DNA of 30,301 nucleotides from a virus (Duplodnaviria > Heunggongvirae > Uroviricota > Caudoviricetes): positions 1 through 30,301 of the IMG/VR virus record IMGVR_UViG_2563366891_000011. The stretch is one strand, 5' to 3'. Shown piece after piece: positions 7,010 through 27,237 of this stretch (position 1 is the stretch's first letter; every line of letters begins with the position of its first letter). The notes beneath the pieces were generated by a model. That model saw only the letters and a program-made list of their open reading frames with translations, searched no databases and was not told the DNA's origin. A program made the translations under genes and the position numbers.

Positions 7010-7209
7010 ACCGCTGGTTCAAAGATCACTACGGAGTGCCCGTCAGAGTCATTCGTTGGGAACCGGAAACACAACGGGTTATCTACCTCCGCGAAGGCTA
7101 TGAGCATGAATGCTTCAGTCCGCTCGAACAGTTTCGTCGTAAATTCAGGGAAATAGAGGTCGGTCATGAGCCTGTTAATGACATCCCAGCCCATTGTGAT
7201 AAATCGTGA
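6997..7209 (+). CDS. Hypothetical small protein (70 aa from TTG; 84 aa if GTG at 6955)
   Basis: TTG at 6997 preceded by AAGGAG (6983-6988, 8-nt spacer); the longer GTG start has no RBS. Confidence 0.4.
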
Positions 7210-8158
7210 TCTTGCATGCCGTATTGGTCTGAATGAGGCAATTGTGTTGCAGCAGCTTCATTACTGGCTGAATGAAACGAATTCAGGCACTGAGCATGGC
7301 GGAATTCGCTGGGTTTATAACACGACAGAACAGTGGCTGGAGCAGTTTCCGTTCTGGTCAGAGTCCACTCTGAAACGCACATTTGCAAGCCTGAAATCAC
7401 TTGGGGTTTTGCGTCGCGAGCAACTCAATAAATCGAAGCGTGACATGACCAACTTCTACACGATCAACTATGAAAGTGAGCTTTTAGAAGAGGTCAAAGT
7501 GAACGAATCCATCAGGTCAAAATGCACTTCTCCATTGGGTCAAAGTGACCTGATGGATGGGCGCAAAATGACACGATCCATAGGTTCAAAACGACACGCT
7601 GTCATCGGGTCAAAATGGCCCAATGATCTTACAGAGAATACAACAGAGATTACTACAGAGAATAAAACATCTTCTCGTCCGGACGCTTCGCAACCGGACA
7701 CGCAAACGGCCGAACAGGAGTTTTTAACTCGCCATCCTGATGCGGTTGTATTCAGTCCTAAAAAGCGCCAGTGGGGAACGCAGGATGATTTGACCTGTGC
7801 ACAGTGGCTCTGGAAAAAAATCATCGCCCTGTACGAGCAGGCCGCCGAATGTGACGGCGAAGTGGTTCGTCCCAAAGAACCGAACTGGACAGCCTGGGCA
7901 AACGAAATTCGCCTGATGTGTGTGCAGGATGGTCGTACTCACAAACAAATCTGCGAGATGTACAGCCGCGTCAGCCGCGATCCGTTCTGGTGCCGTAACG
8001 TGCTCAGCCCGTCGAAGCTGCGGGAAAAATGGGATGAGCTTTCCCTGCGCTTATCGCCGTCCGTAAGCACGTACACCGAAAAACGCGAAGACGCGTACTT
8101 CAAAGCCAGTTACGACAACGTGGACTACAGCCAGATCCCGGCAGGATTCAGGGGGTAA
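7166..8158 (+). CDS. Replication initiator protein (lambda O-like role) with the origin iterons inside its coding sequence
   Basis: 330 aa, GAGG RBS; contains a five-iteron cluster and AT-rich repeats (7508-7668), as lambda ori sits inside gene O. Confidence 0.72.
   Translation: MSLLMTSQPIVINRDLACRIGLNEAIVLQQLHYWLNETNSGTEHGGIRWVYNTTEQWLEQFPFWSESTLKRTFASLKSLGVLRREQLNKSKRDMTNFYTINYESELLEEVKVNESIRSKCTSPLGQSDLMDGRKMTRSIGSKRHAVIGSKWPNDLTENTTEITTENKTSSRPDASQPDTQTAEQEFLTRHPDAVVFSPKKRQWGTQDDLTCAQWLWKKIIALYEQAAECDGEVVRPKEPNWTAWANEIRLMCVQDGRTHKQICEMYSRVSRDPFWCRNVLSPSKLREKWDELSLRLSPSVSTYTEKREDAYFKASYDNVDYSQIPAGFRG
7508..7625. repeat. Origin-type iterons: five GGTCAAA(A/G)TG-containing repeats at about 23-bp spacing (starts near 7515, 7538, 7561 degenerate, 7584, 7608)
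   Basis: Read directly; iterons 1 and 2 also form an inverted repeat (CCATCAGGTCA / TGACCTGATGG). Confidence 0.65.
7628..7668. repeat. AT-rich triple repeat ACAGAGAAT(A) next to the iterons (candidate DNA-unwinding element)
   Basis: ACAGAGAATA, ACAGAGATTA, ACAGAGAATA read directly. Confidence 0.45.
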
Positions 8159-8160
8159 TC

Positions 8161-8649
8161 ATGAGTCTTTTGAATGAAGTTCAGAAATTCATTGAAGCCC
8201 ATCCGGGGTGTACTTCCGGAGACATTGCGGATGCTTTTGCAGGCTACTCACGGCAGCGCGTTCTGCAGTCAGCAAGCAAGTTACGTCAGAGTGGGCGTGT
8301 GGCTCACCGTTGTGAAGGGGATACACGCAGACATTTCCCGCGCCTGACTGAGAGAGCGCAGGAGCCGGAACCACAACCAGTTCGTGAAACCAGACCTGCG
8401 CGCAATTTCTATGTCGGCACTAACGATCCACGGGTAATTTTGTGCCTGACCCGCCAGGCTGAAGAACTGGAGTCCAGGGGCTTATACCGTCGTGCTGCAA
8501 CCGTGTGGATGGCGGCATTCCGTGAAAGCCACTCCCAACCAGAACGAAACAATTTTCTGGCGCGTCGTGAGCGGTGTTTACGGAAAAGCAGCAAGCGCGC
8601 TGCATCGGGTGAAGAGTGGTATCTGTCAGGGAATTACGTGGGGGCTTAA
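8161..8649 (+). CDS. Putative transcriptional regulator with PerC-like C-terminal motif
   Basis: 162 aa; motif LESRGLYRRAATVWMAAF resembles the PerC/Pch family signature as I recall; N-terminus looks like a small helical DNA-binding domain. Confidence 0.4.
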   Translation: MSLLNEVQKFIEAHPGCTSGDIADAFAGYSRQRVLQSASKLRQSGRVAHRCEGDTRRHFPRLTERAQEPEPQPVRETRPARNFYVGTNDPRVILCLTRQAEELESRGLYRRAATVWMAAFRESHSQPERNNFLARRERCLRKSSKRAASGEEWYLSGNYVGA

Positions 8650-13293: not shown

Positions 13294-14376
13294 TTAGAAC
13301 TGATAAACCAGACCTACAGCGACGATGTCGTCGGTATCAATACCAGCTGTTTTGGTAAACTTACTATCGTCAATTAAGTTGATTTTGTAATCAACAAAAG
13401 TGGACATGTTTTTATTAAAGTAGTAAGTAGCACCGACATCGACATACTTGACTAAGTCTCGGTCACCATGAACACCAAGGTCTTTACCTTTTGACTGAAG
13501 GTAAGCAACAGATGGACGCAGACCGAAGTCAAACTGATATTGTGCTACTGCTTCAAAGTTTTGTGCTTTGTTTGCAATATGGTTATTACCAAAAACGGTC
13601 ATATTCTGAGTTTCAGAATATGTGGTAGCCAGATAGATATTGTTCGCATCATATTTCAGGCCTGCAGCCCATACTTCCGCATTTTTGCCGGAGGCATTGA
13701 ATTTGCTCTTACCATAGGCGACCTGACCGTCAGTGCGATCTGATTTAGCATAGGTTGCACCCACGCCGAATCCTTCATACTCATAAGTAGTGGAGAAACC
13801 GAAACCATCACCATTGGCTTCAGTTACGTCAGTGCGGTCATTTTTACCCTGATACTGAGCAGCAAAGTTCAGGCCATCGACCAGACCAAAGAAGTCGTTG
13901 TTACGATAAGTTGCAACACCAGTAGTGCGACCAGTCATGAACACATCTGTTTGGGTCCAGGTATCACCACCGAATTCTGGCAGGACGTCAGTCCACGCAC
14001 CGATGTCGTATGCTACACCGTAGTTACGGCCGTAATCGATTGAGCCGTAATCACCAAATTTCAGGCCTGCAAATGCAAGACGGGTTTTGTCTTTGGAAGA
14101 ACCTTGAGATTCAGCACGGTTGCCTTTGAATTCATATTCCCACTGACCGAAACCAGTCAGTTGATCGTTGATTTGGGTTTCACCTTTGAAGCCAAGACGG
14201 GCATAAGTAGTATCACCATCATCTGCATCATTAGAGGAGAAGTAGTGCTTGGCATTAACTTTCCCGTATAGATCCAGCTTGTTACTGTCTTTATTATAAA
14301 TTTCAGCTGCCTGAGCAGACATCGCCATCAGTACTGATGCAGCTACAGCAGAAATTGCCACTGTTAATTTTTTCAT
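13294..14376 (-). CDS. nmpC: OmpC/OmpF-family outer-membrane porin, prophage-encoded (NmpC/Lc-like)
   Basis: 360 aa; signal peptide [30 protein letters not shown]-terminal VYQF, general-porin sequence character; sits antisense between Q and the lysis genes as nmpC does in DLP12. Confidence 0.9.
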
Positions 14377-25451: not shown

Positions 25452-25847
25452 ATGACGAAAGATGAACTGATTGCCCGTCTTCAGGTGCTGGGTGAGCAAC
25501 TGAACCGTGATGTCAGCCTGACGGGGACGAAAGAAGAACTGGTGCTCCGTGTGGCAGAGCTGGAAGAGGAGCTTGATGACACGGATGACGCTGCCGGTCA
25601 GGACACATCTGTCAGCCCGGAAAATGCGCTGACCGGACATGAAAATGAGGTTGTATCAGCGCAGCCGGATACCGTGACTGATACGGCTGATCTGGTCACG
25701 GTTGTGGCACTGGTGACGCTGCATACTGATGCACTTCACGCCACGCGGGATGAGGCTGTGGCATTTGTGCTGCCGGGAACGGCGTTCCGTGTCTCTGCCG
25801 GTGTGGCAGCTGAAATGACAGAACGTGGCCTGGCCAGAATGCAATAA
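25452..25847 (+). CDS. FI: DNA-packaging / head assembly protein FI
   Basis: 132 aa from ATG 25452 (GGAGGAG RBS). Confidence 0.85.
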   Translation: MTKDELIARLQVLGEQLNRDVSLTGTKEELVLRVAELEEELDDTDDAAGQDTSVSPENALTGHENEVVSAQPDTVTDTADLVTVVALVTLHTDALHATRDEAVAFVLPGTAFRVSAGVAAEMTERGLARMQ

Positions 25848-25858
25848 CGGGAGGCGCT

Positions 25859-26212
25859 GTGGCTGATTTCGATAACCTGTTCGATGCTGCCATTGCCCGC
25901 GCCGATGAAACGATACGCGGGTACATGGGAACGTCAGCCACCATGACATCCGGTGAGCAGTCCGGCGCTGTGATACGTGGTGTTTTTGATGACCCTGAAA
26001 ATATCAGCTATGCCGGACAGGGCGTGCGCGTTGAAGGCTCCAGCCCGTCCCTGTTTGTCCGGACTGATGATGTGCGGCAACTGCGGCGTGGAGACACGCT
26101 GACCATCGGTGAGGAAAACTTCTGGATAGACCGGGTATCGCCGGATGATGGCGGAAGCTGTCATCTCTGGCTTGGGCGTGGCGTTCCGCCTGCCGTTAAC
26201 CGTCGCCGTTGA
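25859..26212 (+). CDS. FII: Head-tail connector protein FII
   Basis: 117 aa, GTG start. Confidence 0.85.
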   Translation: MADFDNLFDAAIARADETIRGYMGTSATMTSGEQSGAVIRGVFDDPENISYAGQGVRVEGSSPSLFVRTDDVRQLRRGDTLTIGEENFWIDRVSPDDGGSCHLWLGRGVPPAVNRRR

Positions 26213-26293
26213 AAGGGGGATGTATGGCCATAAAAGGTCTTGAGCAGGCCGTTGAAAGGGGGATGTATGGCCATACAGGGTCTTGAGCAGGCC
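26208..26293. repeat. 43-bp tandem direct duplication (copy 1 26208-26250, copy 2 26251-26293; 2 mismatches) spanning the FII stop, the Z RBS and the first Z codons
   Basis: Read directly: GTTGAAAGGGGGATGTATGGCCATA(AAA/CAG)GGTCTTGAGCAGGCC twice; flanked by the short direct repeat GCCGTTGAAA. Confidence 0.9.
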
Positions 26294-26845
26294 GTTGAAA
26301 ACCTCAGCCGTATCAGCAAAACGGCGGTTCCCGGTGCCGCCGCAATGGCCATTAACCGCGTTGCGTCATCCGCGATATCGCAGTCGGCGTCACAGGTTGC
26401 CCGTGAGACAAAGGTACGCCGGAAACTGGTAAAGGAAAGGGCCAGGCTGAAAAGGGCCACGGTCAAAAATCCGCAGGCCAGAATCAAAGTTAACCGGGGG
26501 GATTTGCCCGTAATCAAGCTGGGTAATGCGCGGGTTGTCCTGTCCCGCCGCAGGCGTCGTAAAAAGGGGCAGCGTTCATCCCTGAAAGGTGGCGGCAGCG
26601 TGCTTGTGGTGGGTAACCGTCGTATTCCCGGCGCGTTTATTCAGCAACTGAAAAATGGCCGGTGGCATGTTATGCAGCGTGTGGCCGGGAAAAACCGTTA
26701 CCCCATTGATGTGGTGAAAATCCCGATGGCGGTGCCGCTGACCACGGCGTTTAAACAGAATATTGAACGGATACGGCGTGAACGTCTTCCGAAAGAGCTG
26801 GGCTATGCGCTGCAGCATCAACTGAGAATGGTAATAAAGCGATGA
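26267..26845 (+). CDS. Z: Tail assembly protein Z
   Basis: 192 aa from the ATG in copy 2 of the duplication; the ATG in copy 1 (26224) opens only a 20-codon out-of-frame ORF. Confidence 0.82.
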   Translation: MAIQGLEQAVENLSRISKTAVPGAAAMAINRVASSAISQSASQVARETKVRRKLVKERARLKRATVKNPQARIKVNRGDLPVIKLGNARVVLSRRRRRKKGQRSSLKGGGSVLVVGNRRIPGAFIQQLKNGRWHVMQRVAGKNRYPIDVVKIPMAVPLTTAFKQNIERIRRERLPKELGYALQHQLRMVIKR

Positions 26846-27237
26846 AACATACTGAACTCCGTGCAGCCGTACTGGATGCACTGGAGAAGCATGACACCGG
26901 GGCGACGCTTTTTGATGGTCGCCCCGCTGTTTTTGATGAGGAAGATTTTCCGGCAATTGCCGTTTATCTCACCGGCGCTGAATACACGGGCGAAGAGCTG
27001 GACAGCGATACCTGGCAGGCGGAGCTGCATATTGAAGTTTTCCTGCCTGCTCAGGTGCCGGATTCAGAGCTGGATTCGTGGATGGAGTCCCGGATTTATC
27101 CGGTGATGAGCGATATCCCGGCACTGTCAGATTTGATCACCAGTATGGTGGCCAGTGGCTATGACTACCGGCGCGACGATGATGCGGGCCTGTGGAGTTC
27201 AGCCGATCTGACTTATGTCATTACCTATGAAATGTGA
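26842..27237 (+). CDS. U: Tail terminator protein U
   Basis: 131 aa, ATGA overlap with Z. Confidence 0.9.

Follow-up and report, generated by a model that had tools for sequence, protein, structure and literature searches.

The window analysed here, a stretch of 30,301 nucleotides from a virus of the Caudoviricetes (IMG/VR record IMGVR_UViG_2563366891_000011, positions 1 to 30,301), carries the FII and Z genes of a lambda-like prophage on its plus strand. The FII gene (25859–26212), encoding the head-tail joining protein, was intact in the list of open reading frames (ORFs). Its product matched the Phage_attach family (PF05354; E = 1.1e-19) with 71.2 bits against a cut-off of 26, and the gene is annotated as FII in the GenBank record PV340568.1. 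The Z gene (26267–26845), encoding a minor tail protein of 192 amino acids, matched the Minor_tail_Z family (PF06763; E = 3.6e-81) with 272 bits against a cut-off of 23.9, covering the full profile (positions 1–190 of 190) when the ORF was read from the ATG at 26267. The sole difference between this protein and lambda Z is K4Q. The gene order E-FI-FII-Z-U-V was kept in all loci, with FII between FI and Z.

Several other features were found elsewhere in the window. A 330-aa ORF without a Pfam match (7166–8158) encloses two sets of repeats, namely, a repeat of roughly 23 bp in five to six copies (7492–7617; consensus GGTCAAAATGACACGATCCATAG), followed by 3.2 copies of a 12-bp repeat (7631–7669; ACAGAGAATACA). 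The repeats between 7492 and 7669 resemble the iterons of a replication origin located within the gene of an O-like initiator. Just downstream of this putative replication initiator, a 162-aa ORF (8161–8649) contains a PerC domain, a transcriptional activator domain (PF06069, E = 7.5e-9). Additionally, a full-length Gram-negative porin gene (13294–14376, minus strand; PF00267, E = 1.9e-151) is located between the late-regulatory/lysis region and the packaging genes, a cargo gene as in some lambdoid prophages.

At the junction of FII and Z, Tandem Repeats Finder reported an array at 26205–26300 with a period of 43, 2.2 copies, 96% matches, no indels and a score of 178. A search for the 43-mer with up to three mismatches returned exactly two sites, 26205–26247 (0 mismatches) and 26248–26290 (2 mismatches), compared with an expected count of 0.00 from 100 dinucleotide-preserving shuffles. 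These results bear out the preliminary description, made from the sequence alone, of a tandem 43-bp doubling of the FII stop, the Shine-Dalgarno sequence and the first Z codons; the coordinates given there (26208–26293) describe the same two units in another phase. The array consists of GCCGTTGAAAGGGGGATGTATGGCCATAAAAGGTCTTGAGCAG, then GCCGTTGAAAGGGGGATGTATGGCCATACAGGGTCTTGAGCAG, then GCCGTTGAAA. Its copies are head-to-tail with no spacer, and the unit length equals the distance between two short direct repeats, the 10-bp GCCGTTGAAA, which occurs three times (26205–26214, 26248–26257 and 26291–26300).

Copy 1 (26205–26247, plus strand) contains the end of FII with its stop codon TGA (26210–26212, within the first GCCGTTGAAA), the Shine-Dalgarno sequence AAGGGGG, a first ATG (ATG1, 26224) and Z codons 1–8. 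Copy 2 (26248–26290, plus strand) contains the same Shine-Dalgarno sequence and a second ATG (ATG2, 26267), which is the true Z start. The third GCCGTTGAAA (26291–26300, plus strand) covers Z codons 9–11 plus one base and ends the array; counting the flanking repeat, copy 1 likewise holds 11 Z codons plus one base. The nine Z codons per unit counted previously hold in the phase used there, whereas the Tandem Repeats Finder boundaries give eight. The two copies mismatch only at 26233 versus 26276 and at 26235 versus 26278, and both mismatches fall inside Z codon 4, as described before: this codon is AAA (Lys) at 26233–26235 in copy 1 and CAG (Gln) at 26276–26278 in copy 2.

The first ATG opens a decoy upstream ORF of 20 codons (MAIKGLEQAVERGMYGHTGS; 26224–26286, plus strand) with its stop at 26284–26286, so that the ORF list agrees with the reading frame proposed earlier. 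Read in a different frame from Z, the decoy ORF shares 20 nt with the beginning of that gene. Full-length Z had been assigned to the second ATG, and both the GenBank record PV340568.1 and PGAP (WP_001520551.1) start Z there. Both initiation sites have the form AAGGGGG-N4-ATG, with a predicted duplex to the 16S 3' end of −10.8 kcal/mol, compared with −13.5 kcal/mol for a consensus site. The distance from the FII stop is 11 nt for ATG1, as in lambda, and 54 nt for ATG2. The decoy thus has the make-up of a leader ORF, namely, a Shine-Dalgarno sequence at a suitable distance, a start codon and an open frame of 20 codons. It matched no Pfam family and was not called as a gene in any GenBank or PGAP record examined. 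Annotators should note that, in these prophages, Z does not begin at the first ATG downstream of FII that follows a good Shine-Dalgarno sequence.

Other signals were also searched for around the junction. No promoter-like sites were found in 25800–26900, and no Rfam match at E ≤ 1 was obtained in 26000–26500. The only terminator-like match (26618–26633) falls within Z, well away from the repeat, and does not exceed the yield of shuffled sequences; a terminator made by the repeat was therefore rejected. A read-through fusion of FII and Z was also rejected: although the FII stop shares the frame of ATG2, at a distance of 57 nt, this frame is closed by the TAA at 26231–26233.

A point missed by the preliminary description is that the repeated unit holds a palindrome, TATGGCCATA, centred on the ATG. 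Two copies of the unit consequently form a perfect 12-bp inverted repeat with 12 of 12 positions complementary, whose 5' arm (TGTATGGCCATA; 26221–26232, plus strand) contains ATG1 and whose 3' arm (TATGGCCATACA; 26266–26277, plus strand) contains ATG2. The two arms form a stem in both the minimum free energy (MFE) and the centroid structures. Through the C of the CAG codon, the stem gains a G-C pair and extends to 12 bp instead of 10. In the CAG allele, the Z start lies in a perfect 14-nt palindrome, TGTATGGCCATACA (26263–26278 in the window; also in the single-copy loci L008, L009, L024 and L027), while the palindrome at the Z start of the AAA allele measures 10 nt.

Folding predictions assigned the stem an energy of −15.3 kcal/mol alone and −21.6 kcal/mol with a small inner hairpin. 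The predicted probability of being unpaired was 0.001–0.01 for the AUGs of the duplication, compared with 0.45–0.50 in reconstructed single-copy RNAs, and both Shine-Dalgarno sequences were predicted to remain about 0.5–0.7 unpaired. When the 5' arm was masked, as by a ribosome ending FII or standing on ATG1, the predicted accessibility of ATG2 rose to 0.18–0.28. The inverted repeat of the duplication is therefore predicted to pair in free mRNA and to bury both start codons, giving an in silico hairpin over the downstream start, into which the upstream reading frame extends. The whole-segment folding energy was only marginally better than that of shuffled sequences (z = −1.98 for 96 nt and −0.66 for 113 nt), and the 30-nt local opening energy differed little (10.5–12.2 kcal/mol for the duplicated form versus a single-copy range of 11.3–11.7 kcal/mol). 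All carriers are identical across the repeat, so the stem has no variable base pair and hence no covariation. Dense ribosome traffic on the late mRNA may keep the region unfolded, in which case the hairpin would be irrelevant.

The distribution of the duplication was surveyed with a 37-nt probe spanning the junction, with fewer than 28 nt on each side, so that single-copy genomes cannot give a seed match. Of the phage records, two contain the junction (PhiR49_1 and PhiR49_1_star; propagation host given as ECOR13). It was also present in seven of 5426 complete E. coli genome records, corresponding to six strains (KK19-02 was deposited twice) from Australia, the USA, the UK, Italy, France and Germany; for scale, the FII-Z region occurs in 3543 of these 5426 genomes. 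Two IMG/VR contigs and two metagenome contigs carry the junction as well, and an exact look-up of the Z protein revealed the duplication in at least four further NCBI assemblies among the matches listed. No junction match was found in the GTDB species representatives, and there was no sign of the duplication beyond E. coli-type prophages. A literature search found no paper on PhiR49_1 or on the duplication. In E. coli MSB1_4I (NZ_LR898874.1), the probe reported two places, one of which was located at 2642691–2642727; this strain may harbour two prophages with the duplication.

Every carrier has the same 96-nt array, with AAA in the first copy and CAG in the second, and all carriers are identical across 26210–26328. 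The sole change in the array is a T to C substitution in the first short repeat, which was found in L003/L020 (the same SCU-172 locus), L013 and L014. The flanks of the carriers differ from the window at 0 to 52 positions in 2.2 kb. Specifically, the window differs from PhiR49_1 (L001, PV340568.1) at 30 of 2200 positions near the junction, mostly at the end of E and in FI, and is nearly identical to an E. coli prophage locus in JAAMIT010000001.1 (L023) and to another represented by an IMG/VR UViG (L012).

Lambda and related prophages were then compared for the single-copy state that the preliminary description had suggested looking for. A single-copy precursor with both perfect GCCGTTGAAA repeats 43 bp apart indeed exists, with AAA in strain PapM-36-2 (L010) and with CAG in L024 and L027. 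Lambda itself has a single copy in which the upstream repeat is GCCGCTGAAA, matching GCCGTTGAAA at 9 of 10 positions. Both AAA and CAG thus occur as single-copy alleles. CAG is the minority, found in about 15 complete genomes (for example, strains 1943 and A37), and AAA is far commoner. The exact Z protein is indexed in 1395 blocks; among the ten places listed, five were single-copy CAG and five were duplicated.

Duplicated and single-copy forms were found in at least three flank backgrounds, namely, that of the window, that of L019–L021 and one with a divergent FII. One matched pair, the single-copy L027 and the duplicated L021, showed 4 differences in 1300 positions upstream and 3 in 2040 downstream. 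The divergent-FII background includes the duplicated metagenome locus L014 (OLSG01001627.1) and the single-copy CAG locus L025 (CP076279.1). In L014, an unrelated FII allele extends right up to the first short repeat, and the mosaic boundary of L014 and L025 coincides precisely with the FII stop and that repeat. Because the carrier L014 has an unrelated FII, the allele has evidently moved by recombination. E. coli genomes frequently harbour several prophages of this type, with up to five FII-Z places each. In SCU-172, the carrier prophage (L003) is accompanied by a second prophage (L016; NZ_CP054353.1, 1393765–1396322) with a single-copy AAA junction and a Z body identical to that of the window at 545 of 545 positions, and the isolate AF3 (NZ_OZ547117.1) shows the same co-resident pattern. 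Co-resident prophages in one genome could exchange or convert the junction.

The duplication is real and inherited. An assembly or sequencing artefact, in which the true genome would hold one copy, has nothing in its favour beyond the general possibility that attaches to short tandem repeats. The identical junction with the same AAA/CAG pattern was recovered in about 15 independent assemblies from different laboratories, in different flanking haplotypes, and these include complete genomes, a phage genome and metagenome contigs; this excludes the artefact that the preliminary description had asked to be checked, and we regard such an explanation as hardly credible. As to how the array arose, slippage or unequal exchange had been suggested. 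The repeat-bounded origin is supported by the pre-existing repeats 43 bp apart, but simple slippage is not: intramolecular slippage would give copies identical at birth, and all carriers have AAA versus CAG. Because the copies carry two natural alleles, intramolecular slippage alone is insufficient, and the sequences point to the need for either unequal exchange at the 10-bp repeat between Lys4 and Gln4 genomes or a later short conversion. Misalignment at the 10-bp repeat, with two alleles taking part, is therefore preferred to simple slippage. A point-mutation origin of CAG was tried and rejected, as quasi-palindrome templating could explain the A to C change at 26276, which makes the palindrome TGTATGGCCATACA perfect, but not the A to G change at 26278; import of CAG by recombination is more economical because CAG is also a single-copy allele in several backgrounds. 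Recurrent formation at a repeat-flanked site, instead of one inherited allele, might be suspected from the wide occurrence of both 10-bp repeats, which predisposes the site, and from the presence of carriers in at least three flanking backgrounds. However, arrays of the AAA/AAA type would be expected if the very common AAA allele had been duplicated independently, and neither AAA/AAA nor CAG/CAG was found among the carriers, although AAA is much commoner; moreover, a junction with the lambda-type GCCGCTGAAA in the middle is absent from the complete E. coli genomes. We therefore consider recurrent formation improbable. The same AAA/CAG structure in every carrier makes a single origin likely, probably followed by spread through homologous recombination and, from time to time, by loss of one copy.

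On balance, we consider it fairly probable that the window represents a heritable duplication of single origin in one sublineage of E. coli lambda-like prophages, which leaves FII and Z intact and, through the predicted hairpin and decoy ORF, makes Z depend on upstream translation. The proposed course of events would begin with a misalignment at the two GCCGTTGAAA copies 43 bp apart, involving the Lys4 and Gln4 alleles, which would have produced the 43-bp duplication once. Copy 1 would then act as a complete decoy initiation site, with an ORF closing 20 nt into Z. Translational coupling has been modelled as RNA unfolding by upstream ribosomes and as re-initiation with a steep fall-off over distance (PMC12548453; PMC10666635). 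In the former manner, ribosomes ending FII or starting at ATG1 would cover the 5' arm and free ATG2, and a new 30S subunit would initiate Z by binding to the second Shine-Dalgarno sequence, which is predicted to be open, while ribosomes keep the stem apart. In the latter, ribosomes finishing the decoy ORF might move back 20 nt and re-initiate at Z, for which the coat-lysis overlaps of fr and MS2 (−38 and −50 nt) provide precedents; ribosomes leaving the FII stop would be unlikely to re-initiate directly over +54 nt. Additionally, wrong-frame ribosomes crossing the Z start would be expected to block Z initiation part of the time. Overall, the Z yield would probably change modestly, most likely downwards, and be coupled more tightly to FII, without Z being lost. 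The structure of the duplication, its inheritance, distribution and annotation are established, whereas we infer that the hairpin forms in the cell, that the decoy ORF is translated and that Z dosage is affected.

Some Z must nevertheless be expected from the duplicated allele. Lambda Z is listed as essential in a study whose CRISPRi assay is polar (PMC10695390), and PhiR49_1 was deposited as a complete genome with its propagation host named. Since Z is essential, PhiR49_1 is a propagated carrier and the allele is widespread, we infer that Z is still produced from it in useful amounts. Persistence in prophages is only weak evidence for function.

The main rival reading, which we regard as possible but less likely, is that the array is a neutral scar, a reversible length polymorphism with Z expression essentially unchanged and with a decoy ORF and hairpin of no measurable consequence. 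Copy 2 retains the native initiation region from −19 to +34 except for codon 4, a propagated phage carries the duplication, and the same flanking haplotypes contain duplicated as well as single-copy CAG forms, as gain and loss without selection would predict; the local opening-energy estimate hardly shifts, and the folding z-scores are weak. These points are opposed by the perfect 12-bp stem over both AUGs in the centroid structure, with predicted accessibility lowered about 50-fold or more, and by a decoy start of full strength, located 43 nt upstream with an ORF that continues across the Z start, from which at least steric interference would be expected (PMC12548453). At the other extreme, the duplication might form an accidental translational gate, in which the stem would silence free Z initiation, Z would be produced solely by ribosomes coming from FII via the decoy ORF, and a new FII:Z ratio would be set, with the allele kept because this ratio or the linked Gln4 Z is advantageous rather than just tolerated; we think this rather unlikely.

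An alternative Z isoform was also considered, in which ribosomes from ATG1 would change frame by +1 on reaching the end of the decoy ORF (UCU UGA G) and make a Z protein with 20 residues replacing the first six. The frame arithmetic allows such a shift at 26284, entering Z at codon 7, and prfB frameshifting uses the same Shine-Dalgarno-like hexamer, AGGGGG, that is present in the decoy ORF. However, there is no slippery codon of the CUU-U type at the right spacing, and the hexamer precedes the stop by 21 nt (seven codons) instead of standing 3 nt from a shift site. Moreover, the layout follows automatically from a 43-bp duplication with nothing to suggest selection, and no Rfam family was matched, which leaves this isoform exceedingly improbable. 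We retain the reading in which Z has become more dependent on upstream translation. If the predicted effects are real, a single duplication has placed an overlapping leader ORF and a start-codon-hiding hairpin before an essential phage gene, a natural case at the population level in which isogenic duplicated and single-copy forms already exist and can be directly compared. It would then be a convenient test case for distinguishing RNA unfolding from re-initiation in coupling models; apart from this, the array is an ordinary length polymorphism of a gene cluster that is very well known.

Among the closest known systems is the wild-type FII-Z junction of lambda (J02459, 7963–7979), which has the same genes, order, Shine-Dalgarno sequence and ATG context, and likewise places the first ATG 11 nt after the FII stop; the proteins differ only by K4Q in Z and at three residues in FII. 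Lambda has one copy and the upstream repeat GCCGCTGAAA, whereas the window has the doubled 43-bp unit, a Z start 54 nt past the FII stop, and an added decoy ORF and inverted repeat. Duplications and deletions at short direct repeats, formed by slipped-strand mispairing or unequal exchange, are described for lacI and ampC in E. coli. The array resembles such events in being head-to-tail without a spacer, in its pre-existing 10-bp repeat and in the occurrence of both states in the same haplotype. Unlike in these events, the copies carry different natural alleles (AAA and CAG), for which one-step intramolecular slippage is insufficient.

Coupled translation is known from the coat-lysis overlaps of the RNA phages fr and MS2 (−38 and −50 nt) and from the gene VII-IX hairpin of f1 (PMC12548453). 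As in these systems, the upstream ORF ends within the downstream gene, here with a 20-nt overlap, and a hairpin, here a predicted one that ribosomes from upstream would open, covers the start. The fr, MS2 and f1 cases are conserved and experimentally shown, whereas the present arrangement is an accidental by-product of a duplication, shows no covariation and has as its upstream ORF a 20-codon remnant instead of a gene. Short upstream ORFs encoding leader peptides are also known in bacteria, for example, the erm leaders. The decoy ORF resembles leaders of this type in being short, in having its own Shine-Dalgarno sequence and in adjoining and overlapping a start site, which in those leaders is regulated. 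It differs from them in that there is no evidence of sensing, a stalling motif or peptide conservation, and its first 11 residues are the Z N-terminus. The doubled Z start region is a natural variant of a lambda-like prophage and not a new kind of system, and its layout, although it resembles coupling by start-site hairpins and overlapping ORFs, is an accidental by-product.
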